In this document: in pieces, positions 13,054 to 49,363 of the stretch | How the letters are laid out: each line of letters begins with the position of its first letter | How positions within the stretch are numbered: the first letter of the stretch is position 1 | Assembly (NCBI GenBank): GCA_003602535.1 | Contig: QQSA01000078.1 | Span: 4,405 to 68,404 of the forward strand | DNA: 64,000 bases | Reading direction: 5' to 3' | Source: Candidatus Poseidoniales archaeon | GTDB taxonomy: Archaea; Thermoplasmatota; Poseidoniia; Poseidoniales; Poseidoniaceae | Notes under the pieces: model-generated | Told to the model about the DNA's origin: nothing | The model's database searches: none | Seen by the model: only the letters and a program-made list of their open reading frames with translations | Position numbers and translations under genes: made by a program

Positions 13054-16000
13054 ATGCGTAAGTCTCTATTCCTAACCGCTCTTTTCGTATTGTCAGTGCT
13101 CTCTCCGATAGCCTCTGCCGATGTCACTGAAACACAATTCCAGGATGGTTCAACGTCCTATACTCATACTTTTTCGGGAACAGGGGATGGCTTTGCCGGA
13201 AACCTAACTTTCCCATATGGTGCCGAAGTGACTTCAGCCTCATTTGATATTGCAGGTAAGCCATCTTCTACTACCTGGGGTAATCTTACCACTACTGCTG
13301 ATTTTGGAGGGAAAGGCAGCTCTACTTGGATCGGAACCCCACCTGGCTTTGCATATGGAAGTCGTTCTAACTTGTATGTCGACAATGGGGATGTAGAGTT
13401 GGTTGGAAACCCGACCAACAATATCAATGGTTTAGATCGATCTGCAGAAGGAACATCCACTGAGACTATCAACAACTCTGGTGGCTTTGCTTCCAATGGA
13501 GATCAAGGATTTATCGGATCGACCAGCAAACAAACACCTTTCTCAATTTCAAGTTCTTCTTCGAACAACTACAGAGGGTTCGTAATTATGCATGAAGATG
13601 AGTACCACTCTGCAACTTATTCAGGCAGTAGCATTTACACTACTCCTGTTGTAAAACGATATAATTCCACCACTGGTACTTTCCTTGGATCTTCAACGAT
13701 CAGTTCTGGATCTTGTTCATACTCAACCCCACTTTATTCAACTTATGATGCTACAAGTGATGGGGAAGGAAATGTTTGGACTGTGTCATACAGTTACCGC
13801 ATTTTGGTGAAATGGAGTGTTTCAAGTACCGGGACATGGACATGTCAGAACACATATTCATACACAGGTAGCTATTACCCAATGGGAGTAGATATCGATG
13901 AAGATTCTGATCGTATGTTCCTTCTGATGTATGAAGCTGTACATCCAAATTACAACCGGTATTTGTATGAAATCAACCCAACGAGTCCTACATCTGTCAA
14001 TGGTAGTTGGCTTCTTGGTTCCAAAGAACAATTAGGAGATTCAAATACACAAGCAAGTGGTTTGATTGTTGATTTACCAAAAATTGTTACGAATGAATAT
14101 TACAGTCAAAGAGGATATCATAACCATTTCACAATGGATGGTTTCTTCGTAGAAAAAATGGGTAAAATTTTGATAAATGGTGGTGGGCATTATGGAATGG
14201 ACCAACTTGGAGATAACACATTTGGAATGCAATGCCATTACTATTCGTATTGTTCATCTAGTCTGAACAAAATCCAGAGACAAGGAACAGGTTCAATCTA
14301 TGATCATAGAACTCCTACTTCAACTACATCTGTTGTGACCAGTACCACATACTCAATCTCTAAGCAGGTAAGTGATATTACAATCTCTGCTTTAGTTGGC
14401 TATATTCCTTCAGGTACCAGTATTGAATTGCAGGTTTCTAATGATGGCGGAGCTACATGGATGAATGGCATATTCGATCAAAAGTTGACTTTTGCTAACC
14501 CAGGATCTAGTATTCTTTGGAAGGCTTACCTCAACGGTACAGCAACGGAAACACCTGTATTAGACTTCGTAGGATTAACGTATTCGACCAGTTATCAAAC
14601 CAGTGGATATTTCCAGCTTCGCTCGAACTATTATTCTGGAAATGCACCTGTTGCACTAACTGCTTGGTGGAACGCTACAACTCCTGCAGGTACTAGTTTG
14701 CAAGTTGAATTCCAGGATACTTCTACCAAATACTTCTCATTCAGTGGAGATTCGAAAACCGTATCGATGACAAGCGGTTACATCTACATCTATGTTAGAT
14801 TCACATCAACTGGCTCGAATACTCCAACATTGGAAGATCTGAATATTGCAATTCATTCTGATGCTCCTGAGCAGGTAGGAATCGATGTCGGCGCTGATGG
14901 AAGTAACGAATGGACTAGCCAAGGCGTTCTACTAGGAACCACTACACGTAGTGGAGTAGCATTCGTCAAATCATTCAATGATTTGATTCCAGATACTGGA
15001 TCAGGCAATGTTGTAATTCCAATCCATATCAATTCACAAACTGCTGGTATCGTAGAGTTGGAAAGATTTAGTGTAACATACAAGGTCAACACAGTAAACC
15101 TTGACATATCAATCCCTGATGGCGAAATTTTGCATGAGCGAAACGAACCTTATGAAGTTGTTACAAGGCATATCGTTGGCGATGGCACAAATAATTACAT
15201 CCAATCTGCAACACTAAGTTTCGTAGCGAGTCCTGCAAATAATGCGCCAACATTAGAATGGCAAGACGGGGATATTTTCCCTTCACCTAATGACCCTGAA
15301 GATTGGGTTGATATCGATCCTTCCTCTTGGTCGTCTCTAAACAATGGTATTTTGGAAATACATTGGCTGTTCAAAGTAACCTCAAATTTCCCTGACCAAG
15401 AAAACGTTCGGTTTAGAACAAATTGTATTGACAATACTGGAACAAATGGATATTCTCCAGCTCCGTTGTCTAGTGATACTGGATTAAGAGTAAACAATTC
15501 ATTCGGCTTGGGGTGGCTCAATATTAGGGATAACGACGGAGAGATAACCTCCGATAATGTCGTAGATGGTAGCTGGGTTGCTGCTGGCGAAACACTTCAT
15601 TTCCAAGGTGCAATGTGGTTCGCTGATTCGACAGATGCTCCAAAGGATAGTGCATTCGATGTTCGAATTGCCCAAAATGGATTTGTTCACGCTAATTGGA
15701 GAGATACCTCCAACGTCAACGGATCATTCTTCATATCTATTCAAATGCCAGAAATAGATGTTGAAGATGGATTAACCTATGAAATTCAAACATATAATGA
15801 AAGAGATGCTACAATGGTTATGAATTCTAATTCAGATTGGTTTAGGACTTACAAGGTAGATGCTACAGCTCCTGAAAACCTTGGGACTTACCCGCTAAAC
15901 GAAGCGTATGAAGCTGCTGATACTTCTCAAAAAGTTTCGATTAATGTGGCTGATTCTGTAGGCGACCCTAATGAGTTAACATTGTATTACTGGGTAGAAG

Positions 16001-18051
16001 CCGATCATGATATGAATCGAAATGGAGAAGCAGACCCTAGCGAATACGCTACGAAATTAGTCGTAAACGAAACTTCTGCTGATGTCAAAACATTCACTAC
16101 AACAATAGATCACTCAAGAAATCCAAACATGGGACGTGTGTCATATTACTGGGATGGAAGCGATAGAGCAGGAAACCCTCTACACTATTCTACAATAATC
16201 GATGATGAAGTATTCGATTGGGAAAGTGGACCTGGTTTTGATTCTGATGATGCTACCTTCAGAAGTAGAAAGGATTCAGTTGCAATATTCACTGGATTGG
16301 ATTGGGCTGGACACAACGATGGCGCACCAATTTTCGCAGGTACTGAGCAAACTATCTCGCTAGGTCTTATCGATGCTAATACTGCAATTGATTTCGAATA
16401 TATCGACCTGGTATTCGACTTTGAAGGACCTGATAGTGAAGTAGACCAACAGAGAATTTCATATTATGGAATAACTGACAATTTTGCTAGCCAATCCGAT
16501 TACATCGACCTAGCAACAAGTTCTACCATGGTTCAAACCACAAATGATTCAGGTTTGCCTTGGATAATTTTGGACTTTGACTTCACAATCGGTTGGGAAT
16601 GGCCTGACGAAGATATTTCCGACTTGGCTTTGGAATACAAAGAAAGAGGTTCTGAACATCCTACACGACACATTATCGCTGAACATACATTTACTGTTGA
16701 GAACGATTTGGTTTTAGAGCCATCCTCTTTCTTAGTACAAGATATCAGCGAACCTAGAACAGGTATAGTAGCAGATGGAAGCAGGGTAAGAAATGATGAC
16801 AGGCTAGAATTTACTGGTAAGGTAGTTTACGAAGGAAGCAATGTTCCTGCACCGAAAGATGCTGCAATTGTAATCGAGGTTTTCGACGGTGAAAGTATCT
16901 GGTCTGATGGATCATTAGATAGTGATGGAGGATATTCTGTCGAAGTTCCTCTTTCAAGTGCATTGACACTACAATCCTCGCCCACCAGAACCTGTTTGAT
17001 TTCAATTAATGGAATTCCTGGAGATGGAGAGGATATGACCGGACAAACCGTTTCTACAACCCTTCGTGTAATTGTTGATGATACAGCTCCAAGAGTTGTG
17101 ACTAGAGTTTCACCTCTGAACATCATAGACATTTCATCGAATACAGATCTAACCAATGTACCTGTAGAATTCTTTGGAACTGAAGATGCCGATATGACTG
17201 GATCTGAACAGGTTGTTCACTGGGTCATGAAAGATTCCAGTAGAACATTGACACTGGGCGCTGGACAGTCTGTTCTTGGAATGCAACAAGAAGGTCAGAG
17301 TGTTATTTGGACCGGTACTGTTGACTTAACAGATGGCGGTAAAATCACAATGCGTGAAGGAGACTGGGTAGGATTCTATATCACAGGATATGATTCTGCA
17401 GGCAATGAATTCCCTGTGGTTTCCAATTCTGAAGCAAGTCCAATTGCTGAAACTGCTGCTGATGATACCGACTTTGAACGACAATGGGTAAGATTAGGTG
17501 CAGTTGGGCCGCAATTGAAGATAAGCTCAATTTCGTTATCCGATGATCACGTTGCTCCTGGCCAAGAGATTATCATAACTGCAGACATACAGAATGTGGG
17601 CGGAGAGACTAATTCTCAATTCAAAGTCTCGTTCTATGCAGGTGATTCTATTGTACCATTTGATTCATCGACATTGAATAAGATTGGCGCTGGGGAAACA
17701 ATTCCTGTCAAGGTATCTTGGAATGCAGAAGAAGGAATTGATCGAATTCGTGTTGTTGTCGATCCTGATGATGTGATTGTTGAAGTCAATGATGAAGACA
17801 ACTCTGCTGAACACAAAGTCGAGATTGTTTATGTCTCTTACATGGGATGGTTTGATTCAATTCGCGAACAGCCACTAATTTGGTTATTCTCACTGATATC
17901 CATACTCGTATTAATTGGAATTGGAATTACTGCTAACCGTACTGCAATAAGTCATAATGAGGACTCCCTTTACGATGACGAATGGGAAGAAGAGCATGAT
18001 GATGATGAGTGGGAAGATGACGATGATGACGAATATGACGATGACTACTGA
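13054..18051 (+). CDS. Giant (1665 aa) N-glycosylation-rich surface protein with a signal peptide and CARDB-like domain(s), then a C-terminal TM helix and a poly-acidic D/E/W tail
   Basis: MRKSLFLTALFVLSVLSPIASA is a signal peptide. CARDB-like segment: SDDHVAPGQEIIITADIQNVGGETNSQFKVSFYAGD...IGAGETIPVKVSWNAEEG. C-terminal TM is LIWLFSLISILVLIGIGITA, followed by DDEWEEEHDDDEWEDDDDDEYDDDY. Confidence 0.8.
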   Translation: MRKSLFLTALFVLSVLSPIASADVTETQFQDGSTSYTHTFSGTGDGFAGNLTFPYGAEVTSASFDIAGKPSSTTWGNLTTTADFGGKGSSTWIGTPPGFAYGSRSNLYVDNGDVELVGNPTNNINGLDRSAEGTSTETINNSGGFASNGDQGFIGSTSKQTPFSISSSSSNNYRGFVIMHEDEYHSATYSGSSIYTTPVVKRYNSTTGTFLGSSTISSGSCSYSTPLYSTYDATSDGEGNVWTVSYSYRILVKWSVSSTGTWTCQNTYSYTGSYYPMGVDIDEDSDRMFLLMYEAVHPNYNRYLYEINPTSPTSVNGSWLLGSKEQLGDSNTQASGLIVDLPKIVTNEYYSQRGYHNHFTMDGFFVEKMGKILINGGGHYGMDQLGDNTFGMQCHYYSYCSSSLNKIQRQGTGSIYDHRTPTSTTSVVTSTTYSISKQVSDITISALVGYIPSGTSIELQVSNDGGATWMNGIFDQKLTFANPGSSILWKAYLNGTATETPVLDFVGLTYSTSYQTSGYFQLRSNYYSGNAPVALTAWWNATTPAGTSLQVEFQDTSTKYFSFSGDSKTVSMTSGYIYIYVRFTSTGSNTPTLEDLNIAIHSDAPEQVGIDVGADGSNEWTSQGVLLGTTTRSGVAFVKSFNDLIPDTGSGNVVIPIHINSQTAGIVELERFSVTYKVNTVNLDISIPDGEILHERNEPYEVVTRHIVGDGTNNYIQSATLSFVASPANNAPTLEWQDGDIFPSPNDPEDWVDIDPSSWSSLNNGILEIHWLFKVTSNFPDQENVRFRTNCIDNTGTNGYSPAPLSSDTGLRVNNSFGLGWLNIRDNDGEITSDNVVDGSWVAAGETLHFQGAMWFADSTDAPKDSAFDVRIAQNGFVHANWRDTSNVNGSFFISIQMPEIDVEDGLTYEIQTYNERDATMVMNSNSDWFRTYKVDATAPENLGTYPLNEAYEAADTSQKVSINVADSVGDPNELTLYYWVEADHDMNRNGEADPSEYATKLVVNETSADVKTFTTTIDHSRNPNMGRVSYYWDGSDRAGNPLHYSTIIDDEVFDWESGPGFDSDDATFRSRKDSVAIFTGLDWAGHNDGAPIFAGTEQTISLGLIDANTAIDFEYIDLVFDFEGPDSEVDQQRISYYGITDNFASQSDYIDLATSSTMVQTTNDSGLPWIILDFDFTIGWEWPDEDISDLALEYKERGSEHPTRHIIAEHTFTVENDLVLEPSSFLVQDISEPRTGIVADGSRVRNDDRLEFTGKVVYEGSNVPAPKDAAIVIEVFDGESIWSDGSLDSDGGYSVEVPLSSALTLQSSPTRTCLISINGIPGDGEDMTGQTVSTTLRVIVDDTAPRVVTRVSPLNIIDISSNTDLTNVPVEFFGTEDADMTGSEQVVHWVMKDSSRTLTLGAGQSVLGMQQEGQSVIWTGTVDLTDGGKITMREGDWVGFYITGYDSAGNEFPVVSNSEASPIAETAADDTDFERQWVRLGAVGPQLKISSISLSDDHVAPGQEIIITADIQNVGGETNSQFKVSFYAGDSIVPFDSSTLNKIGAGETIPVKVSWNAEEGIDRIRVVVDPDDVIVEVNDEDNSAEHKVEIVYVSYMGWFDSIREQPLIWLFSLISILVLIGIGITANRTAISHNEDSLYDDEWEEEHDDDEWEDDDDDEYDDDY

Positions 18052-21100: not shown

Positions 21101-21109
21101 TGGGGTTAA
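18101..21109 (+). CDS. lhr: Lhr-family (COG1201) DEAD/DEAH-box helicase with a C-terminal 4-Cys zinc ribbon
   Basis: KWTPTPVQEATQEDISSGKDRLVVAPTGSGKTMAAMLPLL is motif I. ITPLRALNRDV follows, then VVVDEVHEM (DEVH box). Zinc ribbon near the C-terminus: CCLRCSAV...CLKCGGQ. Confidence 0.8.
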   Translation: MAEGVFSKLDMGLQKALEERKWTPTPVQEATQEDISSGKDRLVVAPTGSGKTMAAMLPLLDRCLREEWTGMSIVYITPLRALNRDVDRRLEEITSAVGLRLGLRHGDTSQSDRNKHVRNPPNVMITTPETFQLMFTGSKLRELLRTVKAVVVDEVHEMADGERGWQLSIGLSRLEAFKGSKVQKIGLSATVGNPKQVARWLSKDAEPINAIAPRSTKLTVDAMIQLPEDEIGSLELAISPRAHATLRGLADIVAKKHPCLIFVNSRNSAETVSQRIQAIAPELEIGVHHGSLAKETRTQMEDELRSGKIQGLVCTSSLELGIDVGSVNHIVQIRSPRSVDRMLQRVGRADHRLGGIGSGHLLGWESDDLFEAAVIARKAVAGELEPVEWRERPLSVAANQIVMMVHSHGALPIEAITESIAGACQFEGWTDDDTISIGKVLADRWVIRCEDDPSQVPWYRWPHDVWQELMKTSENSLPEQPKLAFDEEPSEDLAKLKFEVPARFSKGWISRSGKTRQWVTKHLSMIPDKQSYRVRDAVTRKSLGNVDEAFVLSLNDGGEEADGRQRRFVMAGRTWVVVDADPEQSELLVAPVSDQGHAPQWVGELPPTPAEVARESGRLRRLFAIDLGLIEDEDVEQIDPAELLSGKSTIDEYPLNGEAKGILAEIVTSHFNSAGMIPSERLITIEDRSEAIVLNCCQGNRVNEAIGHYLLAMASTRSGKWGRLIVEPCRISLQIAGVRPAELIEWLSETPPEALEGVLSVTLPNSREVRWRFAQIAKIFGILRHGVDPRKINIQALLKKYRGTPVMDEVLGKLFHERMDVNGAMDVLRAIQSGLIGLEVTAAGPLGISSRSEKDLLLPNFDNQQVRARLEGRLMNERAALCCLRCSAVRRFRVARYPEINDIKKCLKCGGQMLACMREGLEKQLVEWVNSDDEKTRDRMMKNAQAVANRGMDAILALMGRGIGEATCQRLMRKVQRGDLDGLLEAIHIAEIEYARTRRFWG

Positions 21110-22236
21110 TCTGTTTCAAGTTCCATTAAGTTAACACGCTCAACAGCCTCTACAACATCTCCTTCTTCCCACCAATCTACAGCGATAAATGTCGGCCTCT
21201 TGCCATGTAAATCAATGCATTCAATCGCTCTTTCAACCATGAAGTCAACATCATTTGCTTCACCTGCACGATTTGGATCTGACAGCCCGGCTTGATTCTT
21301 TAACCAATTATTCATATGGAATACAGGTTGATTTACATCGCCTCTTAATTTTTCACAATCCATCGAAGATGTATCGTCATCTGCATAATTTGTGGTCCAG
21401 CTATGGGTTAGGAAATCATGGAAGTAAGGGTGTGAAGAATCACCAGATTGTTCCCAAAATACAACAAGTCTCTTGTTCATGTTTATCATTTCAATCAAGG
21501 TAGGCCATTCAGAATTCATATCATGAATGTACATCATTTCGGATAATCCTACATCATCGAATATCTCTTTCAAATGATCTGGCTCGACATAGTTTTCAAT
21601 GAGTAGTGTAACCACATCTCTGTCTTCACTATTCATTTCAGATTCCAATTTATTTAACCAAGCCCAAGGGTCTACTGCGCCGTAGGTACAAGGGCTAAAA
21701 CCTCTATCAGAATCCCCGTGACAAAATCTGACATTTGAGAGACTTTGTTCGGCAGTTGTCAAATAATGAGTATCTAACATGAAGGCCCTCATTCCAGCAT
21801 TCCATTGTGCTTGGAATCCCGTGCGGTGATTGCTAGCAGGATAGTAGATATTGTCTTCATGAGTCGAATATGAATTGTGTGTTTCAGGGAATGTTACTTG
21901 ATCATAAGTACGATGGCAAAGAATTACCAATCCATTGCAAGGTATGGTTTCCATGTATTCGCATGAGTCGTCATCTTGTGTTGCATTAGAGTCATAATTC
22001 ATTGCATCAGAATCAGTGCATCCTAAAACAGGTTCAGGCTCATCGTACTCGCATGAACCATCATCCTCATTTGCTTCGGAATCGTAATTGTTAGCCTCTG
22101 AATCAGTACATCCTAAAATCGACTCTTCCTCCGATATTTCTTCGGCGTCCTTTCCCTTTGGAGCACTACTTGGCTCGTAAGTACAACCAGGAGCTAGTAG
22201 GATGAGCAAGGACATCAGTATAACATGTCCTCGCAT
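21106..22236 (-). CDS. Secreted lipoprotein-like PLC-like phosphodiesterase (PI-PLC X-domain-like), with two N-terminal Cys-pair acidic mini-modules
   Basis: MRGHVILMSLLILLAPGC is a signal peptide with a lipobox-like Cys. The catalytic-domain-like segment PETHNSYS...GMRAFMLDTHY...RFCHGD resembles the PLC X-domain S(S/T)HN(T/S)Y His box. LGCTDS(E/D)A(N/M)NYDS(E/N)A..DD.SCEY occurs twice. Confidence 0.5.
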   Translation of the reverse strand: MRGHVILMSLLILLAPGCTYEPSSAPKGKDAEEISEEESILGCTDSEANNYDSEANEDDGSCEYDEPEPVLGCTDSDAMNYDSNATQDDDSCEYMETIPCNGLVILCHRTYDQVTFPETHNSYSTHEDNIYYPASNHRTGFQAQWNAGMRAFMLDTHYLTTAEQSLSNVRFCHGDSDRGFSPCTYGAVDPWAWLNKLESEMNSEDRDVVTLLIENYVEPDHLKEIFDDVGLSEMMYIHDMNSEWPTLIEMINMNKRLVVFWEQSGDSSHPYFHDFLTHSWTTNYADDDTSSMDCEKLRGDVNQPVFHMNNWLKNQAGLSDPNRAGEANDVDFMVERAIECIDLHGKRPTFIAVDWWEEGDVVEAVERVNLMELETD

Positions 22237-22776: not shown

Positions 22777-23937
22777 TCAAGAAAGTATGTCGGCATTTAT
22801 TCCCAAGTAGGAAAGGATATTTCCGCACAGATACAATGAACCAGTTACTACTATCAATTCAGTTTCTTCCTCAAAAGATTCGATTGCAACTGACGGCTTT
22901 TCGATGTGCTTAACCCCGGTTAGTGGCTCTTCAACACCTGGATATCGGCCGTTTTGAGGCTCAGTTGTAATTATTTCAACAGGTGGAAAAATTTTGATTA
23001 ATTCGAGCATAGGGGATAGAAAATCATCCATATTTTGTTGCGGAGATGTACCGAGTAGAAGAGACCATTTTTCAGGTAGTATTGCAGCGATTTCGGGAAT
23101 CGCCCGCCTCATGCCGCTAGGATTGTGAGCGGCTTCCAATAAGAAACTCGGTTCTCCTTCGATGTATTGCATTCTTGCAGGCCAAGTTATTGGTCTCCTA
23201 ACAAATGAATATCCAATCATCGCACACAACATTTCGGCTAAATCGGCGGCTTCATCCATGAAAGTTGATTTTTCAGGATTGTAGAATCTTGCACTAATTG
23301 CTTCTTCGCGCATTGCATTGCGTACTTTTGCACTACCCGGGTCTCTAATCAACATAGGAACTCCGGATCTCCAAATTGCGGCCTTTTCTTTAGCAACCTT
23401 TTCGATTGTATCTCCAAGTATGTCGCTGTGTTCCAGACTAATAGCTGTGACTAAACAACCTACAACATCTGCAGATCTAGTAGCATCTAAACGGCCCCCA
23501 AGTCCAGTCTCTAACACCATAATTGATACTCCTGCTTCTTTACATGCGATAAGTGAAACAAGGTATGTGATTTCAAAAAATGTTAACTCCATCGGCAAAT
23601 CTTGAACCTTTGAAAGTGCATTATCGAAATCATCGCTAGAAATTGATTTTCCATTCACTCTAACTCGTTCTTCAATTCGCACTAAATGGGGGGAAGAAAA
23701 CAATCCAACATTGTATCCGGCTCTAACCAAGCCGGCAACCATCTGTGCACATGCACTGCCTTTACCATTTGATCCTGCAACATGAATACAATCCATCGCT
23801 CTATCAGGGCGTCCAAGGGCTTCCAGTGCCTCATTAACCCGAGAGAGGCCAAGAGACATACCCTTCGATTTTGAAGAGTTTAACCACTCCCTCGCAGACA
23901 TCACGGTCATTGGCCCCGTAGGGGCCAGACCATCCAA
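22777..23937 (-). CDS. folC: Folylpolyglutamate synthase / dihydrofolate synthase (Mur-ligase family)
   Basis: IHVAGSNGKGSACAQMVAGLVRAGYNVGLFSSPHLVRIEERVRVNG is the FolC P-loop region (H.AGTNGKGS...G..VG..TSPHL...ER). Confidence 0.8.
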   Translation of the reverse strand: MDGLAPTGPMTVMSAREWLNSSKSKGMSLGLSRVNEALEALGRPDRAMDCIHVAGSNGKGSACAQMVAGLVRAGYNVGLFSSPHLVRIEERVRVNGKSISSDDFDNALSKVQDLPMELTFFEITYLVSLIACKEAGVSIMVLETGLGGRLDATRSADVVGCLVTAISLEHSDILGDTIEKVAKEKAAIWRSGVPMLIRDPGSAKVRNAMREEAISARFYNPEKSTFMDEAADLAEMLCAMIGYSFVRRPITWPARMQYIEGEPSFLLEAAHNPSGMRRAIPEIAAILPEKWSLLLGTSPQQNMDDFLSPMLELIKIFPPVEIITTEPQNGRYPGVEEPLTGVKHIEKPSVAIESFEEETELIVVTGSLYLCGNILSYLGINADILS

Positions 23938-23972: not shown

Positions 23973-26234
23973 ATGGGAGAGCCTGCCTCTGAGGACCACA
24001 TCAAGCGCGTAGAGCGTGAATTGGCTAAAGAAGACAGTCTTTTGGCCAATATGATTCAACAAGCGCCAGGAATGCTTGGCATGGCATTTATGTTTGTTAT
24101 TACAATCTTATTGGGGCTTTGGTTGCAGCCTTGGTTTGAATCTTCAGGATTGCAAGCATTCGGTGAATCTGGATCCACCCAAGCACGTTGGGTAGGACTG
24201 CAACTTGTAGCGATTTTTGCTTTCACATTCGTTATTCTTTGGCTAGCAAAGAATCATTTACAGCATGTAATCAAATATGGATTGCTATTTGTTCTATTCC
24301 TTGCATTGTGTTACACTACAGTTCCAGGAGCGCATATATTGTTGGTTCCAGAGATTGAAACTGAAGATTTTGAATTTACAAATTCGATCGAAATAAACGA
24401 GGATGTAGTCTCTTTCAATTCAGACGGAACTATGATTACAAATATCGCTAAGTGGAGAGTAGATAACAGCACTAACAACACATTTGAGATTTCGAAGAGG
24501 GCAGCAGATACAACACTTGAGTGGTCATGGGAAATTAATGCAATGCCAGGTGGCCCAGACATTAGAGTGATGGAAGGAGATTATGCTTATACTGCTACCA
24601 ATGGCGATTGGATTTGGTCTTTTGATAAAGAAACGGGTGAAACTCTTAGCAAATACGCTTGTTTTGATGAAGATAAATGGAATGGAACACAAGAAAGTTA
24701 TACTCCAATTACTGGATTGGAAAGCTGTTTTTCTGCTGTTGAGGTTATAGAAAATCCAGAGGAAAACAAGGGTGCCCTGTACATCATAACTAGCGGAAGT
24801 GAAATGGTTAGGATAAATACCTTCGATGGCGATGAGAATACAAACATGTCAATCATTCAAGCCAGATGGGAGATTACTCAGTTACAAATGAACAACCCCG
24901 GTGTAGAGGTCCTACACATGAGTCAGTATGATGAAGATAGTATTCTGTTTGCTACATCATTGGGAGCAACAATGATTCACTTAGAGAAAAATTCGAAATC
25001 ATATGATGGTCCTGGTTCGAAACCACCTAATTGGGTTGACTCGTCTACTACTGAATGGGTTTATGAAATTGAAAATCAAAATAATTTGACTACATTCAAT
25101 ATTGTCGAAAGTATCTGGGACGATGATGATCAATTGATTATGGCAGGATTTGAAGATGGTATGATTAAATCATGGATTATTGATGAGAATTATGAAGATG
25201 AAATGATAGCTCCAAATGAATACCTTGGCATATTTGAAGAAGAAGACCGTTTCAAAGGCGGTGATTCCTTCGAAGGCCCAATCAGTGCGATAAATAGTTT
25301 CGATCTCGATGGAAATAATGGCAATGAATTGTGGATTGCTGATGCTGATGGAATTCATGGATTATTCTATGAAAAATTAATCGAATACGCGACTTTAGAT
25401 ATCGTTCTAGATGGACACAGTCAGTTAAGTTCCAAAGACTGGGAGATTCAAGCAATTGGTGCAGGCACTTGGGAAGATAATCTCAGTATTACTCATTCAT
25501 CTGTGGTAATTGATAGTGGAGAATTTGATCCAGACACAATGTACAACTCATACGGCATACAATGGGATGATACAGCTTTCTTCTTAGGAATTGGACTTGC
25601 AATTATTTTGATGGTCGCATTGATTATTCGCCCTGAATGGTACGTAGTCAATACAGTTGGAGTGTTGGTTGGCGCTGGCGTGATAGTAATGTTAGGAGTT
25701 ACATTCGTTCCAACCCTGATTGTCATATTCATGGTTCTAGCTGCTATTTACGATGCTTGGGCTGTTTACCGCTCTAAGCATATGTTGGACTTAGCGGATA
25801 CAATGATTGGACTCAATCTACCTATTCTACTAGTCGCTCCACAAGAGAGCGGTTATTCTATGTTGGATGAAAAGAGTAGTATTCGACCACCAGAACAAGC
25901 TGAAACAAAAGTCGAATCAGTTGCTGCTGCACCTGTAAAGATGAAAAAGCGCAAGAAACCAAAAGAAGCGATGTTCATGGGACTTGGCGATGTCATATTC
26001 CCCGGAATGCTGGTCATCTCCTGTGTCAATTTCATCTCTAGTGGAGGATTGGAAGTCGGAATATCTGCATTGATTGGAGGATTGGTTGGCTACTTTGTTC
26101 TGATGGCCTATGTCGCATCTGGGAGACCTCAAGCAGGATTGCCATTACTGAATGGTGGAGCAATTCTTGGTTACATCATTGGTGGATTGATATTCGTAGG
26201 AAGTGCTGCATTTTCGTTCGGTATTTCGTTGTAG
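23973..26234 (+). CDS. GxGD-type intramembrane aspartyl protease (signal-peptide-peptidase/presenilin homologue, A22) fused to a ~480-aa extracytoplasmic repeat-containing N-terminal domain
   Basis: C-terminal TM block carries LAAIYDAWAVY (SPP YD(I/V)FWVF box), MGLGDVIFPGMLV (GLGD(I/V)V.PG box) and QAGLPLL (PAL-like). Spacing is YD -> GxGD ~55 aa -> PAL-like ~60 aa, as in SPP/PSH. The N-terminus has 2-3 TMs, then a large domain with repeated hydrophobic..DG/NG blades. Confidence 0.65.
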   Translation: MGEPASEDHIKRVERELAKEDSLLANMIQQAPGMLGMAFMFVITILLGLWLQPWFESSGLQAFGESGSTQARWVGLQLVAIFAFTFVILWLAKNHLQHVIKYGLLFVLFLALCYTTVPGAHILLVPEIETEDFEFTNSIEINEDVVSFNSDGTMITNIAKWRVDNSTNNTFEISKRAADTTLEWSWEINAMPGGPDIRVMEGDYAYTATNGDWIWSFDKETGETLSKYACFDEDKWNGTQESYTPITGLESCFSAVEVIENPEENKGALYIITSGSEMVRINTFDGDENTNMSIIQARWEITQLQMNNPGVEVLHMSQYDEDSILFATSLGATMIHLEKNSKSYDGPGSKPPNWVDSSTTEWVYEIENQNNLTTFNIVESIWDDDDQLIMAGFEDGMIKSWIIDENYEDEMIAPNEYLGIFEEEDRFKGGDSFEGPISAINSFDLDGNNGNELWIADADGIHGLFYEKLIEYATLDIVLDGHSQLSSKDWEIQAIGAGTWEDNLSITHSSVVIDSGEFDPDTMYNSYGIQWDDTAFFLGIGLAIILMVALIIRPEWYVVNTVGVLVGAGVIVMLGVTFVPTLIVIFMVLAAIYDAWAVYRSKHMLDLADTMIGLNLPILLVAPQESGYSMLDEKSSIRPPEQAETKVESVAAAPVKMKKRKKPKEAMFMGLGDVIFPGMLVISCVNFISSGGLEVGISALIGGLVGYFVLMAYVASGRPQAGLPLLNGGAILGYIIGGLIFVGSAAFSFGISL

Positions 26235-26244
26235 GTGATAGATT

Positions 26245-27528
26245 ATGTTGAGTATGGAATTGTTCCGAAGTGATGCGGATAAAATTCGTGCTGATCATGA
26301 TAAACGTGGTATTCCACATGACCGAATAAATCAGGTGATTGAACTTGATGAACAGTGGCGAGGAGCCCTCAAAGAAATGGAAGAGGGACGCAGAGAGCGA
26401 AACCTAGCTGCAAGAGGAATTGCAGACGCAAAGAAAAGTGGTGACAAAGATGCTGCTGCCAAAATTATGGCCCAAGTTAAGGACTTGGGAGACCGAATTG
26501 CTGCTTTAGATGAGAAAGCAAATTCACTTCTTGAAAGTAGAGATTCTATCCGGATGCGTATTCCTAACCTACTACATGAATCAGTACCGGTTGGAGAGGA
26601 TGAAAGTGGCAATACCCAGCACTCGCTACATGGCGAAAAGCCGGAGTTTAATTTTGAGGCACGAACTCACAATGAACTCATTGAGATGAATAAATGGGTC
26701 GATTTAGAAAGAGCAGCAAAAATTGCAGGAAGTCGTTTCTTTTTCCTAAAGGGCGACCTTGCACGGCTTGAATTAGCCCTCCAGACATATGCAGTTGATT
26801 TTCTGGTAGAACGCGGATATACCCTTGTACAGCCACCGGTAATGATGAATCGAAACGCCTACGAAGGAGTTACTGACCTCTCGGATTTTGAGACTGTGAT
26901 GTACGGAATAACTCCAGACCCATTGTACATGATTGCTACAAGCGAACATCCTCTCACATCGATGTATATGGACGAAGTTCTTGAGCCAAGTCTACTACCG
27001 ATTAAGATGGTTGGAGTAAGTCCTTGCTTCCGCAGAGAAGTTGGCGCACACGGTCTTTCCGACCGAGGTATTTGGAGAGTTCACCAATTCACAAAGATTG
27101 AACAAATTGTAATTTCTCACCCTGATGATTCATGGGATCACCACGAGGATTTGTTGAAGAATTGTCTTGATCTTTGGAATGCTTTGAATCTCCATTATGA
27201 GGTAGTAAACATCTGTACTGGAGATATGGGTACAGTTGCTGCTCGCAAGTATGACCTTGAAGCATGGTTGCCAGGAGCTAATGCATACAAGGAAATTGTT
27301 TCTTGTTCAAACTGTACCGATTATCAAGCTAATCGCCTAAGAATGCGTTACAGGACTAGTGAAGGTAATTCTGCAGTGCACACTCTAAACTCTACAGCAG
27401 TCGCTACTAGTCGAGCATTAGTAGCAATAATGGAACAAAATCAACTAGAGGATGGGCGAGTCAAAGTTCCAGATTGCTTGATACCTTTGATGGGTGGAAA
27501 AACTCATCTTGAGCCTTGCCAATGGTGA
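26245..27528 (+). CDS. serS: Seryl-tRNA synthetase
   Basis: N-terminal coiled-coil arm. Class II motifs: FRREVGAHG...RVHQFTKIEQ...GDMGTVAARKYDLEAW...TLNSTAVATSRALVAIMEQ. Confidence 0.9.
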   Translation: MLSMELFRSDADKIRADHDKRGIPHDRINQVIELDEQWRGALKEMEEGRRERNLAARGIADAKKSGDKDAAAKIMAQVKDLGDRIAALDEKANSLLESRDSIRMRIPNLLHESVPVGEDESGNTQHSLHGEKPEFNFEARTHNELIEMNKWVDLERAAKIAGSRFFFLKGDLARLELALQTYAVDFLVERGYTLVQPPVMMNRNAYEGVTDLSDFETVMYGITPDPLYMIATSEHPLTSMYMDEVLEPSLLPIKMVGVSPCFRREVGAHGLSDRGIWRVHQFTKIEQIVISHPDDSWDHHEDLLKNCLDLWNALNLHYEVVNICTGDMGTVAARKYDLEAWLPGANAYKEIVSCSNCTDYQANRLRMRYRTSEGNSAVHTLNSTAVATSRALVAIMEQNQLEDGRVKVPDCLIPLMGGKTHLEPCQW

Positions 27529-27532
27529 TTGA

Positions 27533-28876
27533 ATGCGTTGTATTTTCCTCTGCTTTTTGATGGTGCTTGCACCCATGAGTGGTTGCTTTGGAGAAGAGAT
27601 TCCTGAAGAAATAGAACCTTCTTTGACTGTTGAAGAGATCAGTTCTGCAACACGAGGACAATATCTGACAATCGAAGTCGATTCTAATGTAGAGTGGACA
27701 TTTAATCGTTCAGCTGGATTATTCTATCTTGATGATTATGGAGTCCTTAGAGATTCTATCGAAGCAACGTTCCCACCAGAAAAGAAATCTCTAGAATTAC
27801 TAATCCTAGATACTGAAAGAGATAGTGTAAACATTTCAATTTCTGCCGGTGATGAGTTATGGCAAGCATCCCTAACCCTAGAGGATAGTCAAGAACTGAT
27901 GCTTGTAGACGGAAGAAGAGCTTACGAGACAATAGATATGCTAACGAGTTCTTACAACAATAGATGGTGTGCAAGTGCATCTGTTCATGAAGGTGGAGCA
28001 GCCTATGAAGCAGCAGCAGAAGCAATGGCTGAAGAAATGCGAGGAATGGGCTTTGATTTCGTAGAGGTTACTAGGTATGATGATGACCCAGACCAACTGA
28101 ATATTGTTGGATATAATTGGGGTAGAACTAATCCTGACGAATACATTGTAATCGGTGGCCACTTTGACATTGCATACATGTTTACCCCGCCAGGTGGCGG
28201 TACCAATGAAGGAGCAAATGATGACACATCCGGCTCAACAGTTTCTCTTGAAATGGCCCAAGCATTAGCAAAGATGGAATTCGATCACACAGTTGTCGCA
28301 GCACTTTGGGCCTGCGAAGAAGAAGGATTGCTTGGTTCTCGTGCATACGTTAGTCATCTTCCTGAGAATGTAACAGTCAAGTCTTACCTAAACTTTGACA
28401 TGGTTGCCCTAAACTATCCAATTATTCCTCTAACTGAACCTATTCTTGGACCAGGTGGAGAAATATTTTCTGCCACAAAATACGATTGGACGATTAGCAT
28501 AGCTGGTGCGAGTGATAGCAATATGGAATTGATGTATGAATGGGTTGGCACAACAATCGAAGAAGACCTGTATTACCAACCAACCGATGCGAATCCAATT
28601 ACCTGGCAGATTGCTGAATCATGTGCATCCGATCACTGTTCTTTCTTCTCTGCTGACTATCCAACATTCAATTTCTTCAGCCCAGGAGGAGATATTTCAT
28701 TCTGGCAAGAATGGCATTCACCATCGGATACACTAGAATTCATGACTGCTAAAGCCGGTGGCGAAGCTGGAATGGCCAGTGGTTTCAACAGTCTTGTTTG
28801 GTCATCATTAGACCTCTTTGTGCGAATCGATAACTCAGATGAAACGTTCCAAGGACGCTGGTTAAGTGAAGAATAA
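27533..28876 (+). CDS. Secreted M28-family zinc aminopeptidase
   Basis: Signal peptide MRCIFLCFLMVLAPMSGC. Metal ligand boxes: IGGHFDIAY, GANDDTSGS, CEEEGLLGSRAYV, NFDMVA. Confidence 0.75.
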   Translation: MRCIFLCFLMVLAPMSGCFGEEIPEEIEPSLTVEEISSATRGQYLTIEVDSNVEWTFNRSAGLFYLDDYGVLRDSIEATFPPEKKSLELLILDTERDSVNISISAGDELWQASLTLEDSQELMLVDGRRAYETIDMLTSSYNNRWCASASVHEGGAAYEAAAEAMAEEMRGMGFDFVEVTRYDDDPDQLNIVGYNWGRTNPDEYIVIGGHFDIAYMFTPPGGGTNEGANDDTSGSTVSLEMAQALAKMEFDHTVVAALWACEEEGLLGSRAYVSHLPENVTVKSYLNFDMVALNYPIIPLTEPILGPGGEIFSATKYDWTISIAGASDSNMELMYEWVGTTIEEDLYYQPTDANPITWQIAESCASDHCSFFSADYPTFNFFSPGGDISFWQEWHSPSDTLEFMTAKAGGEAGMASGFNSLVWSSLDLFVRIDNSDETFQGRWLSEE

Positions 28877-30350: not shown

Positions 30351-33300
30351 TCAGTCTCTACGAAGTAGAGCAGCACCTAATAGGCCGATTGTCGCAATAA
30401 TTCCAGTAAATCCTGGAAGTGCTGGGTTCTCATCTGAATAAGAATCTGCTTCTTCGGAATATAGACGTGCTGTATTCCAATCTTCATCAACATCTAGAGT
30501 TGAATGATCAATCATTATGACATCTCCAGTTGTTAAACTATCACTGGAATCAGTATCCATGTACATGATTGATAATCCTGAAGTCATCATTTCATCTTCA
30601 GTCACTTGAATATCGGATAGTGTCATCGACCATATATCATCAGAGCAATCTAGGTCATTCAGATTCTCATCTTCATCTAAGTCGTCACAGTTTGCAAGAG
30701 TTAGGCTGTAATCATTCAATGATCCTCCGATTCCTCCATCCATTCCAACTACTACTAGGACTTGCATAGAGTCAGTGATGTCGCCACCATCTTCATCCAT
30801 ATCTTCCATAGCATCCATCATATTTTCGAATTCAGCGAAGTTCAGTCCACCGCTATCATCATCATCATACATGTCAACCATGTTTGAAAGATGGTTTTCT
30901 TCTTCACTGGACATAGTTTCGCCATCTTCATTGTTTTGATTTGCAGAATATATCCATTCTTCAGAGGTTACTTCTCCATCGTTATTTGCATCGATAATCA
31001 AGAAAATAAACTCGAGGTTTTCTTCCATATCATCATCCATTGCGTCAAACATATTCATGAATTCATCGAAATCCAATCCACCGTTTTCGTCATCATCATG
31101 CATAGCAAACATTGCTGCAAATGCATTGTAGTCTTCATCAGTCAATGGTTCGTCGTCTGAATTATTAGCCATCTCTGTCCATTCTAACAAGGTGACTTCG
31201 TCGTCATCATTAGTATCAATCATAGCAAACATGATTTCTGGAGAATCTTCCATGTTTCCACTTTCGATTTCCCACATCATATCTGCGAATTCAGTAATGT
31301 TCAATCCTCCACTCTCATCTTGGTCATACATGTCAAATAATACAGACATGCGGTCGATATCATCTTGGGTAATTTCTTCTCCATCATCAGATTCGTTAAA
31401 CATCTCAGTCCATTCGGTTAAGGTGACTTCACCATTTTCATCAGAATCCATCATATCAAACATCGTATCGATATCCATTGGCTCAGGTGAATCCATTAAG
31501 ATAAGATAACCACTCATTGTCGATGAATCGTATTCATAAAGAATCAAGATTTCGTATTCACCATCATCAATAAGGAATGCATGTCCATCAGCATCTACCA
31601 TATTTCCTAACCATTCAACACAAATTTCAGTAGCATTATTGAAATCTCCGTGGCAACTTTCGTAATCATCCATGAATATATCCCATACTCCGGTTGAATT
31701 GAAAATAATCTCTCCAGTTTCGCACATAGTTGCGTTGTCTTCATTTTCCCAGCATTCTTCGTAAAGTAAGTGCTCTGGCAAAGTCATAGTGGTTTCAGTG
31801 AATGTGTAATCCATATCAGTGACCATTTGTCCACACATTGAATCATCTAAGTTTGTACTGTCAAAGCTGGAATGGTTTCCATCGTTGAAATCAACTACAG
31901 CTAGACAATGGTAAACCATTTCATCATCATGACCATCGTGACGCATACATTCCCAACCCGGTTCAAGATCAGTACACTCATCCATTTCATAACCATCGCT
32001 TTCCATTATGTTACCATCAGAATCAACCCAATCATTCATCCAGCATTCGTAATAACTGTCCTCAGGATCGGTGCTTTCTGTACATCCATCATAGTAAATT
32101 GGTTCATCGTAATAGTGATCGTCGTGGTCGTCATGAGCTTCATCTTCACCATCAGGACAATCATCAGTTCCGTCATTCACTTGTGAAATCCAAACTTCAC
32201 TTCCATCCATACAATCGAACCAATTGATTTCATTTCCATCTGTGTCATATTGTTGCTCATCTGCTCCATCATCGCAATCAGCATCACCATCATTTACGTA
32301 GTGGAATGGAATTTCTGATCCATCTCCACAGATGAATGTTGGACCATCATCGTGGTCGTGGTCGGAGGAATGGTCGCATTTGTCTGGAGACCACATATTT
32401 TCAACCATACAATTGAGGTAAGAAAGCTCGTCGACATCCAAAAGACCATCGCTATCAATGTCGCTATTGTTAAACATATAATCGATGCTATCCGAGTCGT
32501 ATCCTTCTGCCAATCCGTCGTTAGTTAGATCCAAATATACACAATCATCTAATTCGTACCAGTCTAACATTAAGTCGCCATCAGAATCACATTCAGACAT
32601 TTCACGATTAAACGTCCAATATGGATCGTTGCCGTCGTCGTCATCGTCGCCTCCATCCATGCTGGTCCACATGTATCCTGCATCCCAACAATCATCTTCT
32701 TCATGGATATCTACAATTGTATGAGTTTCGATGTCGTAACATACCATTCCTTCATCGTCGTGGCTGTGATCATGGTCATCTCCAAACTCATTCATGTCCA
32801 TTAGCATGAAAGGAAGGGCATGTTGCTCAATACTTTCGTCAATAGAAATGTCACCTGAGTTAAGCAATTGGAATTTTACCCAGTTGTCTTCATTCTCAAC
32901 ATCCATAAGGTCGAATCCTGTTATTTCCATATCCGAGTTTGTGTACACATTCATAGCGCCAAATGGTGCGTCTTCGACATTTAGCATTCCACTAAATGTC
33001 ATTCCGCTATCTGTAACTTCAAATCCAGAAAATGTTGCTGATACAGGATCGAAAATACCAGTGTAGTCATCTGATTCTGGGTTTTCATCCTCTTCTTCAT
33101 CCATATCGTCGCCGTCATGGTCATCACCATGTTCATCGCCATGGCCATCGTCAGTAATCCAAATTCCACCAGAATCTTCACAATCTTCTTCGTTATCTAT
33201 TGAGTAATCATTAGTATGAGTATTCATGTCATGGCATACCATTTCGTCACCCATATCATCATCCATGTCTTCATCATCATTGCCCATGTTGTAAATAGAT

Positions 33301-33872
33301 TCGAATGTGCCTGAATGAGACATGCGTAGTTCCATCGATTGTTCATTGCCTTCATCATCAGTTCCTGTCATCGAATATTGAATTTGATTACCATAGTAGA
33401 TTACTTCTTCAGTACTGAAAGAGTCACCATATCTATCCTCAATACTAGATTTAAGACCGTCTGGAGAAACTAGCACAGTTTCCATGAAATACCAAACTTC
33501 TTCAGAAACTGAAGGACAACCGTTGTATGGCTGGCTTTCATCAACCAAATCAGGATTCCAATATTCCCACTCTTCACATTCATCAGTATTCGCATAAACC
33601 TCGGAAACTTCCATCGAGAATCCAATAGTAGTGTCAAGAGTTTCGATATCTGGGCCTTCATCCATGAAATTGATGAATTCTACAATTGCTTCTTCAAGTT
33701 CTTCTTCTGAAGAGCAGAGATCATCCTGAATATCTGTCGCTTCTTCGTTGTAATTAAGGGCGTCTTCATCCCCACATCCAACAATTTCTATTTTGTCTTC
33801 AGCATCTTCTGCATCTAAGCATCCAGCTAGAAGTAAAAGTGCAGTCAAGCATATGGCTATCGCTTTGTCCAT
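30351..33872 (-). CDS. Giant (1173 aa) hyper-acidic secreted calcium-binding protein with an N-terminal Cys-pair module, LDLa-like Ca-cage motifs, three tandem EF-hand-pair repeats and a C-terminal PGF-CTERM archaeosortase sorting signal
   Basis: Signal peptide MDKAIAICLTALLLLAGC. The sequence is D/E-rich throughout. LDLa-like: CGDGSEIPFHYVNDGDADCDDGADE and CMDGSEVWISQVNDGTDDCPDGEDE. Canonical EF loops include DSDENGEVTLTEW, DQDESGGLNITEF, DTNDDDEVTLLEW, DDDENGGLDFDEF, DANNDGEVTSEEW and DDDDSGGLNFAEF. C-terminus is PALPGFTGIIATIGLLGAALLRRD. Confidence 0.8.
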   Translation of the reverse strand: MDKAIAICLTALLLLAGCLDAEDAEDKIEIVGCGDEDALNYNEEATDIQDDLCSSEEELEEAIVEFINFMDEGPDIETLDTTIGFSMEVSEVYANTDECEEWEYWNPDLVDESQPYNGCPSVSEEVWYFMETVLVSPDGLKSSIEDRYGDSFSTEEVIYYGNQIQYSMTGTDDEGNEQSMELRMSHSGTFESIYNMGNDDEDMDDDMGDEMVCHDMNTHTNDYSIDNEEDCEDSGGIWITDDGHGDEHGDDHDGDDMDEEEDENPESDDYTGIFDPVSATFSGFEVTDSGMTFSGMLNVEDAPFGAMNVYTNSDMEITGFDLMDVENEDNWVKFQLLNSGDISIDESIEQHALPFMLMDMNEFGDDHDHSHDDEGMVCYDIETHTIVDIHEEDDCWDAGYMWTSMDGGDDDDDGNDPYWTFNREMSECDSDGDLMLDWYELDDCVYLDLTNDGLAEGYDSDSIDYMFNNSDIDSDGLLDVDELSYLNCMVENMWSPDKCDHSSDHDHDDGPTFICGDGSEIPFHYVNDGDADCDDGADEQQYDTDGNEINWFDCMDGSEVWISQVNDGTDDCPDGEDEAHDDHDDHYYDEPIYYDGCTESTDPEDSYYECWMNDWVDSDGNIMESDGYEMDECTDLEPGWECMRHDGHDDEMVYHCLAVVDFNDGNHSSFDSTNLDDSMCGQMVTDMDYTFTETTMTLPEHLLYEECWENEDNATMCETGEIIFNSTGVWDIFMDDYESCHGDFNNATEICVEWLGNMVDADGHAFLIDDGEYEILILYEYDSSTMSGYLILMDSPEPMDIDTMFDMMDSDENGEVTLTEWTEMFNESDDGEEITQDDIDRMSVLFDMYDQDESGGLNITEFADMMWEIESGNMEDSPEIMFAMIDTNDDDEVTLLEWTEMANNSDDEPLTDEDYNAFAAMFAMHDDDENGGLDFDEFMNMFDAMDDDMEENLEFIFLIIDANNDGEVTSEEWIYSANQNNEDGETMSSEEENHLSNMVDMYDDDDSGGLNFAEFENMMDAMEDMDEDGGDITDSMQVLVVVGMDGGIGGSLNDYSLTLANCDDLDEDENLNDLDCSDDIWSMTLSDIQVTEDEMMTSGLSIMYMDTDSSDSLTTGDVIMIDHSTLDVDEDWNTARLYSEEADSYSDENPALPGFTGIIATIGLLGAALLRRD
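30820..31470 (-). repeat. Three tandem ~65-aa EF-hand-pair repeat units within the acidic protein gene
   Basis: Repeated DxDx(D/N)GEVTxxEW ... DxDx(D/S)GGLxFxEF units are visible in the translation and as similar DNA blocks. Confidence 0.6.
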
Positions 33873-49210: not shown

Positions 49211-49293
49211 GCGGAGATCGCATAGCCTGGTATTGCGGTGGACTTGAAATCCACTGTCCCTCGGACACGGGAGTTCGAATCTCTCTCTCCGCG
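49211..49293 (+). tRNA. tRNA-Ser (anticodon UGA), class II with a long variable arm. No encoded CCA.
   Basis: Manual fold: acceptor GCGGAGA/TCTCCGC. Anticodon arm GTGGA-CTTGAAA-TCCAC, giving anticodon TGA. Long variable arm GTCCCTCGGACACGGG. T-arm GGGAG-TTCGAAT-CTCTC. Discriminator G. Confidence 0.8.
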
Positions 49294-49363
49294 CTTAACT
49301 ATCATTACCTATTGTATCTCTGAGATGAAAGGGTTCAACAACTCAAGCCACCGTAGGTGGTTC

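Follow-up and report, generated by a model that had tools for sequence, protein, structure and literature searches.

A presenilin homologue of Poseidoniales archaea with a predicted seven-bladed β-propeller in its TM3-TM4 loop

How does an intramembrane protease of the presenilin type come to carry a large acidic domain that is not part of the membrane, and what might such a domain do for it? The question is raised by a gene in a 64,000-nucleotide stretch from a Candidatus Poseidoniales archaeon (assembly GCA_003602535.1, contig QQSA01000078.1, positions 4,405 to 68,404; the window in what follows), which an earlier note made from the sequence had read as a presenilin-type GxGD protease fused to an extracytoplasmic repeat domain. 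The complete gene, placed by the list of open reading frames (ORFs) together with Pfam, NCBIfam and PDB matches, occupies 23973..26234 (+) with its TAG stop codon at 26232-26234, and encodes 753 amino acids (aa). Its product is, by these matches, a bona fide archaeal presenilin homologue (PSH, MEROPS A22), and the additional domain is inserted in the loop between transmembrane helices (TM) 3 and 4.

The membrane core and the site of insertion

The window protein scores 172.7 bits against the Pfam SPP model (PF06550; E=1.6e-50, cutoff 23.9), 26.2 bits against Peptidase_A22B (PF04258; cutoff 23.3) and 214.5 bits against the NCBIfam equivalog NF041679, 'presenilin family intramembrane aspartyl protease PSH' (cutoff 125). 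The A22 profile check proposed in the earlier note therefore gives scores above the curated cutoffs, and its assignment of the protein to the presenilin-type proteases stands. The comparison with MCMJR1 PSH of Methanoculleus (PDB 4hyc), which it had also proposed, yields a collinear alignment (E=3.2e-29 when the single sequence is the query, 4.6e-42 with the family profile), in an ungapped part of which D594 and D673 pair with the catalytic D162 and D220. The existing automated annotation of homologues already uses the name PSH. While the catalytic definition of PSH and A22 appears to be kept, the architecture departs from the usual layout: the Pfam and NCBIfam models span 283 and 281 positions, 4hyc is 301 aa long and compact orthologues are 354-377 aa, so that a length of about 750 aa is as unusual as had been supposed, and the protein differs from the typical PSH of ~280-300 aa with short extracellular loops.

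Hydropathy and an AlphaFold2 (AF2) model agree on nine hydrophobic segments and nine helical spans. Residues 1-33 (23973..24071, +) form a predicted cytoplasmic amphipathic helix, which in the model (helix H9-58) continues into TM1, is conserved in the family (mean column identity 73%) and contains four basic residues (K+R). TM1-TM3 lie in residues 34-121 (24072..24335, +), where hydropathy peaks accompany the AF2 helices H9-58, H71-93 and H97-124. TM4-TM6 occupy residues 534-600 (25572..25772, +), which align without gaps to 4hyc 111-162 and include the YD motif (Asp594 codon 25752-25754); Y593-D594 falls inside the hydrophobic segment 581-600 that constitutes TM6, and D594 is invariant in all 54 homologous sequences of the alignment that we used for residue conservation. 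The cytoplasmic TM6-TM7 loop, residues 601-665 (25773..25967, +), aligns to the corresponding loop of 4hyc and has 11 K+R; its first half is conserved, and its second half is variable, basic and disordered (KMKKRKKPK), the predicted local distance difference test score (pLDDT) being below 50 over residues 614-666. TM7-TM9 follow in residues 666-753 (25968..26231, +), with GLGD (Asp673 codon 25989-25991) and GLPLL (LPLL at 26139-26150), and here QAGLPLLNGGAILG pairs with QAGLPPLNGGAILG of 4hyc.

The GLGD motif, G670 to D673, pairs with GMGD (D220) of 4hyc and is invariant among homologues, and the equivalent of the PAL motif, QAGLPLLNGG (720-729), located before TM9, pairs with QAGLPPLNGG and is likewise invariant; in neither protein is this motif a literal P-A-L (PMC2947513). 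The three A22 motifs are found where the earlier note had put them, in AIYDAWAVY (YD 593-594), GLGDVIFPGML (670-680) and LPLL (723-726), and one catalytic aspartate lies in TM6 and the other in TM7, which are neighbouring membrane helices as it expected. The predicted cytoplasmic loops contain 18 K+R and the short outer loops one, and the positive-inside rule together with homology suggests a presenilin-like orientation, with the N-terminus and the basic TM6-TM7 loop inside and the TM3-TM4 loop outside. As far as sequence can show it, then, the nine-helix PSH core is complete, with both catalytic aspartates and the PAL-equivalent motif invariant. With MCMJR1 PSH (Methanoculleus marisnigri, 4hyc/4hyg) the window protein shares this core, YD in TM6, GxGD in TM7 and GLPxL before TM9; it differs in having an extra N-terminal cytoplasmic helix of ~25 aa, and a 410-aa predicted propeller where the 301-aa MCMJR1 protein has a TM3-TM4 loop of ~13 residues.

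The linear order of the segments gives the appearance of a different construction, in which a separate two- or three-helix 'sensor' module and ectodomain have been joined to the N-terminus of a shortened protease core of ~190 aa, and indeed Pfam reports nothing for the N-terminal 125 aa alone. When this part is scanned against NF041679, however, its residues 37-117 match positions 2-80 (E=1.4e-6), and the C-terminal 229 aa scanned alone match positions 93-279 of the PSH model (E=1.9e-58); the insert thus sits between model positions 80 and 93, and its 412 residues scanned alone against the profile models give no match. The alignment to 4hyc is collinear throughout, with query residues 33-115 corresponding to PSH 8-88, which include TM1-3, and ~530-743 to PSH 101-294, and the AlphaFold model and hydropathy give the order three helices, an all-β region (137-517) and six helices. 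Since the two ends match successive pieces of the PSH model and are collinear with 4hyc, we place the domain within the TM3-TM4 loop, which measures ~8-13 residues in compact PSHs and ~410 aa in this protein. A protease core fused at its N-terminus would begin at model position 92-93 and be without TM1-3, whereas the compact orthologues join the equivalent TM1-3 directly to TM4, and we regard the fusion as very improbable. These alignments identify the three helices at the N-terminus as TM1-TM3 of the nine-helix core itself rather than an added anchor. The earlier note was right that a large acidic non-membrane segment is present, but its size is ~410 aa (residues 122-533) and not ~480; the '2-3 TMs' that it placed ahead of the protease core number exactly three and belong to that core.

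The inserted domain and its distribution

Residues 122-533 (24336..25571, +) constitute the insert, for which an extracellular seven-bladed β-propeller is predicted. A model built from the 54-sequence alignment has a mean pLDDT of 88.6 and a predicted template modelling score (pTM) of 0.87, and contains 28 β-strands, equivalent to seven blades of four strands each; its top fold matches are all seven-bladed propellers. The insert is, on this model, a seven-bladed β-propeller, as the earlier note had guessed. It contains 83 D+E and 19 K+R, a net charge of -64, and over the 54 homologues the N-x-S/T glycosylation sequons number 1.66 per 100 aa in the insert compared with 0.05 elsewhere in the protein. 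Two cysteines, Cys230 and Cys252 (24660..24728, +), flank a long loop between propeller strands 9 and 10 and are a putative disulfide pair; 53 of the 54 sequences have C230, all 54 have C252, and most inserts have no other cysteine. Given the distribution of K+R, the net charge, the sequons, the cysteine pair and the presenilin-like orientation of the core, we infer that the insert lies outside the cell, which supports the extracytoplasmic location proposed earlier.

The most conserved stretch of the propeller (approximately residues 422-481) includes a loop, D444-L-D-G-N-N-G-N-E452 (25302..25328, +), with the D-x-D-x-N-x-G-x-E spacing of FG-GAP or integrin-like loops. D444 is invariant, position 452 is E or D in every homologue aligned, and LWIAD comes next; the integrin-type spacing makes this a putative Ca2+ site. 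Residues ~202-241 are a further part of the conserved patch of the propeller. The seven blades, and a loop of this kind followed by a hydrophobic strand, are shared with propellers of the FG-GAP/BBS type (the integrin α N-terminal domain, BBS7 and FG-GAP_3), although the sequence links to these are weak. Matches to Beta-prop_BBS7 were found in nine of 14 family inserts but below threshold (best E=1.9e-4; 13.4 bits for the window insert, cutoff 27), FG-GAP and FG-GAP_3 are each weakly matched by one family member (E ~0.02), and none of the 14 inserts reaches the Pfam gathering threshold for these families (PF01839, PF13517, PF23743). A hidden Markov model (HMM) of the insert alone, searched against 1.84 billion representative proteins, matched 60, and these are PSHs of ~690-780 aa with an identically placed insert, or fragments, with the single exception of an FG-GAP-type propeller (P0174; marginal, E=6e-4), which matches in the region around D444-E452. 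The propeller thus appears distantly FG-GAP/BBS-like, and not a recognised member of an FG-GAP family. All nine of the PSH-length or partial matches that were scanned contain the SPP domain, and no free-standing or differently attached propeller is detectable with this HMM among the 1.84 billion representatives; the possibility that the propeller has split off as a gene of its own was rejected for this reason, the short hits being contig-end or truncated fragments.

The propeller-bearing architecture is spread widely through Poseidoniales. When the entire protein served as query, 116 homologues were found, each 714-772 aa long and with identities down to 36%, and those that are named are labelled Poseidoniales, Poseidoniaceae or 'Euryarchaeota archaeon'. 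In a scan of one genome per species, relatives were present in 525 species-level genomes; the best 80 matches come from metagenome-assembled genomes (MAGs) of Poseidoniaceae and Thalassarchaeaceae, and 78 of them cover the entire 753 aa, the other two ending at a contig edge. One 779-aa propeller-bearing PSH (P0149; locus L086, 8001-10340) diverges close to the root of the core tree described below; it is encoded on a 3.0 Mb contig of ~69% G+C (the window has ~42%) from a high-GC Poseidoniales relative, and its locus retains the order Lhr, deaminase, FolC-like gene, PSH and seryl-tRNA synthetase (SerRS). In the literature searched no propeller-bearing PSH is described, with the reservation that an earlier mention in the survey of archaeal intramembrane aspartyl proteases by Raut et al. 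(2021) is not excluded, and the propeller-inserted PSH is apparently an undescribed, lineage-specific variant.

The propeller evolves faster than the core and is yet clearly under purifying selection. By the Nei-Gojobori method, over 33 locus pairs in which dS is unsaturated, the insert has a median ratio of nonsynonymous to synonymous substitution rates (dN/dS) of 0.116, compared with 0.036 in the membrane core, and mean column identities are 42% and 78-85%, respectively. Within the insert, conservation is among the highest at its junctions with the membrane helices (residues 122-141, 56%; 522-541, 64%), and conserved linker residues are found towards both TM3 (Y114, P118, H121) and TM4 (G516, F518, M523, Y524, G528). 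That the long gene is an artefact, whether an assembly chimera, two genes read through as one, or a pseudogene in decay, is barely credible. Gene callers or assemblies do often break this gene, and many database entries of 200-490 aa are cut-off calls of it, but an artefact is contradicted by the 116 full-length homologues from independent samples and the full-length matches in 78 of the 80 best species genomes, as well as by the purifying selection on both insert and core and the invariance of the catalytic residues.

The short entries emerged in a profile search with the C-terminal core, which returned many proteins of 200-490 aa, most of them beginning inside the propeller. Such entries (P0187, P0194, P0206, P0233, P0257 and others) have at most 89% identity to the C-terminal core and start at an internal methionine in the propeller, and some of the genes in the P0187 group lie on contigs longer than 200 kb. 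We considered whether the matches of this length, with 80-89% identity, might be a compact class in their own right and rejected this, since their starts inside the propeller identify them as cut-off gene calls. Frequent short calls of this kind could hide the propeller architecture in automated surveys.

A coherent compact class does exist, however, at 354-377 aa (P0287, P0255, P0265, P0271 and others), consisting of complete nine-helix PSHs in which the TM3-TM4 loop is 8 residues long and in P0287 reads GEGGVNAW. The locus of P0287, which carries a Thalassarchaeaceae label, has Lhr helicase, dCMP/dCTP deaminase (-), FolC-like ligase (-), PSH (+) and SerRS (+), and because this gene order is identical to that of the window and the long relatives, P0287 is an orthologue. 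The same synteny led us to reject both the view that the compact forms are paralogues and the view that the long form is universal in Poseidoniales. In a neighbour-joining tree of 269 core columns, rooted with MCMJR1 PSH and bootstrapped 300 times, the compact clade is monophyletic in 296 replicates and nested among long forms in 273, whereas only 24 replicates recover the long forms as monophyletic; the nearest long relative of the compact clade is P0141, a 713-aa protein labelled Thalassarchaeaceae. Since long forms occur in both families, with propellers that are homologous, a single gain of the propeller before the radiation of the order, followed by a single loss in a sublineage of Thalassarchaeaceae, is the most parsimonious history and in our judgement quite a probable one. 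The existence of a compact orthologue also suggests that the propeller is a separable module, dispensable for a functional PSH and accessory to catalysis rather than required for it.

Gene neighbourhood and other surface proteins of the window

The gene for SerRS (26245..27528, +; Pfam match) begins 10 nucleotides downstream of the PSH gene, and this adjacency is kept in the four loci compared with the window (L001, L003, L084 and L086). The divergent upstream neighbour is a FolC/Mur-ligase-like gene (22777..23937, -) whose synteny is conserved; its homologue in L001 matches Mur_ligase_M/C, and the equivalent position is filled in L084 and L086. The only neighbours conserved across distant relatives are the housekeeping genes for Lhr helicase, the deaminase, the FolC-like ligase and SerRS.

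Two genes downstream of the PSH gene lies that of a 447-aa lipoprotein (27533-28876, +) with the signal MRCIFLCFLMVLAPMSGC and a Peptidase_M28 domain (E=4.9e-27). Because the ectodomain of nicastrin has a fold of the M28 family, this protein was considered as a nicastrin-like partner, but it is missing at that position in all four of the loci compared, and its proximity to the PSH gene was put down to coincidence. The earlier note had further suggested that surface proteins nearby could be substrates of the protease. There are two PGF-CTERM proteins in the window, neither of them adjacent or syntenic, so that the gene context lends this suggestion no support, and as the neighbourhood is not conserved we do not retain them as candidates. 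One is a predicted surface protein of 1173 aa (30351-33872, -) with a lipobox signal, an LDL-receptor class A module, several EF-hands and a PGF-CTERM (…PALPGFTGIIATIGLLGAALLRRD), a mix of domains that is unusual for an archaeon. The other, of 582 aa (47419-49167, +), has the C-terminus …GLPGFTFVTVATGLGLAIIANSREE, and confirms that surface anchoring of the archaeosortase type occurs in this organism.

A 376-aa lipoprotein (21106-22236, -) has two tandem cysteine-containing repeats (GCTDS.A.NYDS.A..DD.SCEY) ahead of a further domain, which in the L001 homologue matches PI-PLC_X (PF26146); the window copy is without a Pfam match at E≤0.001. Secreted proteins of very large size are encoded at 1383-6509 (-; 1708 aa) and 13054-18051 (+; 1665 aa); each has a signal peptide and a strongly acidic tail at its C-terminus, and neither has a PGF-CTERM. 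Finally, an ORF of 501 aa with a GTG start (49238-50743, +) overlaps tRNA-Ser(TGA) at 49211-49294, and its true start is probably further downstream.

The role of the propeller

What the domain contributes can be approached by analogy with other members of the family. We consider it the best explanation, and a reasonably probable one, that the protein is an active PSH intramembrane aspartyl protease whose propeller selects or gates substrates in cis. The propeller would be positioned on the outer face of the protease, adjoining TM2/TM3, which in γ-secretase belong to the substrate-docking region covered by nicastrin. From there it would select or gate substrates in cis, either by admitting only membrane-anchored stubs whose ectodomains are short or by recruiting particular type-I membrane proteins, and the core would then cut the bound helix between Asp594 and Asp673. 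This proposal draws on the substrate pocket of γ-secretase, on the contacts of PEN-2 and nicastrin, on exclusion by nicastrin and on the PA domain of SPPL2.

In γ-secretase the substrate helix is held in a pocket formed by PS1 TM2, TM3, TM5, TM6 and TM7, and PEN-2 binds PS1 TM3/TM4 and touches the nicastrin ectodomain (PMC7248309), which according to Bolduc 2016, as cited there, sterically disfavours substrates with long ectodomains. The propeller leaves the window protein at approximately the side that corresponds to PS1 TM3/TM4, where PEN-2 binds. Both systems combine a presenilin-type catalytic core with a large extracellular domain, but nicastrin forms a subunit of its own, with an aminopeptidase-like (M28-type) fold and a helix that anchors it, whereas the ectodomain of the window protein is present in cis; no homology of the window protein to nicastrin, PEN-2 or APH-1 was seen. 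We therefore advance functional equivalence of the propeller and nicastrin as a hypothesis, by analogy. SPPL2a/b/c (A22B) resemble the window protein in joining a GxGD core and an extracytoplasmic globular domain in one polypeptide, and their PA domains influence substrate recognition or discrimination and kinetics (PMC12043953). These PA domains, however, are of ~150 aa and terminal, before TM1, and differ from a propeller between TM3 and TM4; a Pfam scan gave no match to a PA domain in the window protein. SPP and SPPL proteases have a membrane orientation opposite to that of presenilin and cleave type-II substrates. Propellers of six, seven or eight blades filter the substrates that reach the active site in the prolyl oligopeptidase/DPP-IV family and in tricorn, but these are soluble serine proteases with no membrane part, whose propeller caps the catalytic domain, and they have no sequence relationship to the window protein.

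A stronger form of this proposal is that Poseidoniales have independently evolved a built-in analogue of nicastrin, the propeller over the docking side picking single-pass substrates by the size of their ectodomain or by recognition; this is possible, and we put it forward only tentatively. One class of candidate substrates would be what stays in the membrane once the abundant PGF-CTERM surface proteins have been shed or processed by archaeosortase. Several points weigh against a role in gating or recruitment. The full-length AF2 model has a pTM of only 0.62, so that it does not establish the placement of the propeller over the substrate gate; no physiological substrate is known for any archaeal PSH (PMC2947513), the function being listed as 'Unknown' (PMC9263693); and the housekeeping gene context gives no clue to a functional partner or substrate. 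An entire sublineage does without the propeller, whose contribution could therefore be modest or niche-specific, and the secondary loss in that sublineage depends on a neighbour-joining tree, one partial and distant outgroup, and the NCBI family labels of MAGs.

The propeller might instead, as the earlier note proposed, be a sensor of a ligand or signal (a peptide, a glycan or Ca2+), with the conformation of TM3/TM4 switching proteolysis, so that the protein would be a one-component device for regulated intramembrane proteolysis. Propellers commonly serve as ligand-binding modules, the highly conserved TM3/TM4 linkers are compatible with mechanical coupling, and the FG-GAP-like D-x-D-x-N-x-G-x-E loop falls in the best-conserved stretch of the domain. 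A loop of the Ca2+ type would nevertheless be saturated in seawater and is hence more likely to be structural, profile scans of the protein and the family inserts matched no ligand-binding family at significance, and neither the window nor the four loci compared have a conserved transcription factor or anti-sigma-like substrate nearby; with one sublineage lacking the domain altogether, we find a sensor unlikely.

A little harder still to accept is that the propeller has a job unrelated to proteolysis, such as S-layer or envelope anchoring or the binding of a partner, for which the PSH core would be merely a membrane anchor. Such a job would accommodate the approximately threefold faster evolution of the propeller relative to the core, its loss in compact forms while the gene stays, and the many large surface proteins of Poseidoniales, and no relative of the propeller is detectable outside the PSH protein. 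An internal loop of a nine-helix enzyme would, however, be an odd route to a membrane anchor, few parts of the insert are better conserved than its junctions, and the lack of any free-standing or differently anchored copy among the 1.84e9 representatives suggests that the function of the propeller is tied to the protease.

Presenilin-family proteases have been studied heavily because of γ-secretase and Alzheimer's disease, and how they choose substrates is debated; the choice depends on accessory ectodomains, provided in trans by nicastrin and in cis by the PA domain of SPPL2. In the window PSH an ectodomain is predicted in the loop beside the helices whose counterparts form the substrate pocket of PS1, and this architecture occurs across Marine Group II, one of the most abundant archaeal groups of the surface ocean. 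Were the propeller neither to gate nor to recruit substrates, the protein would be merely a decorated housekeeping protease. If it is an analogue of nicastrin, it would be the first single-chain 'presenilin plus gatekeeper' and a minimal system for substrate gating in the style of γ-secretase, for which the propeller-less orthologue would be a natural control. If, as we favour, the propeller gates or recruits substrates in cis, the pair of long and compact forms would offer a compact, genetically defined model for the control of intramembrane proteolysis by an ectodomain, and would provide a handle on the turnover of cell-surface proteins in the uncultured archaea of Marine Group II.

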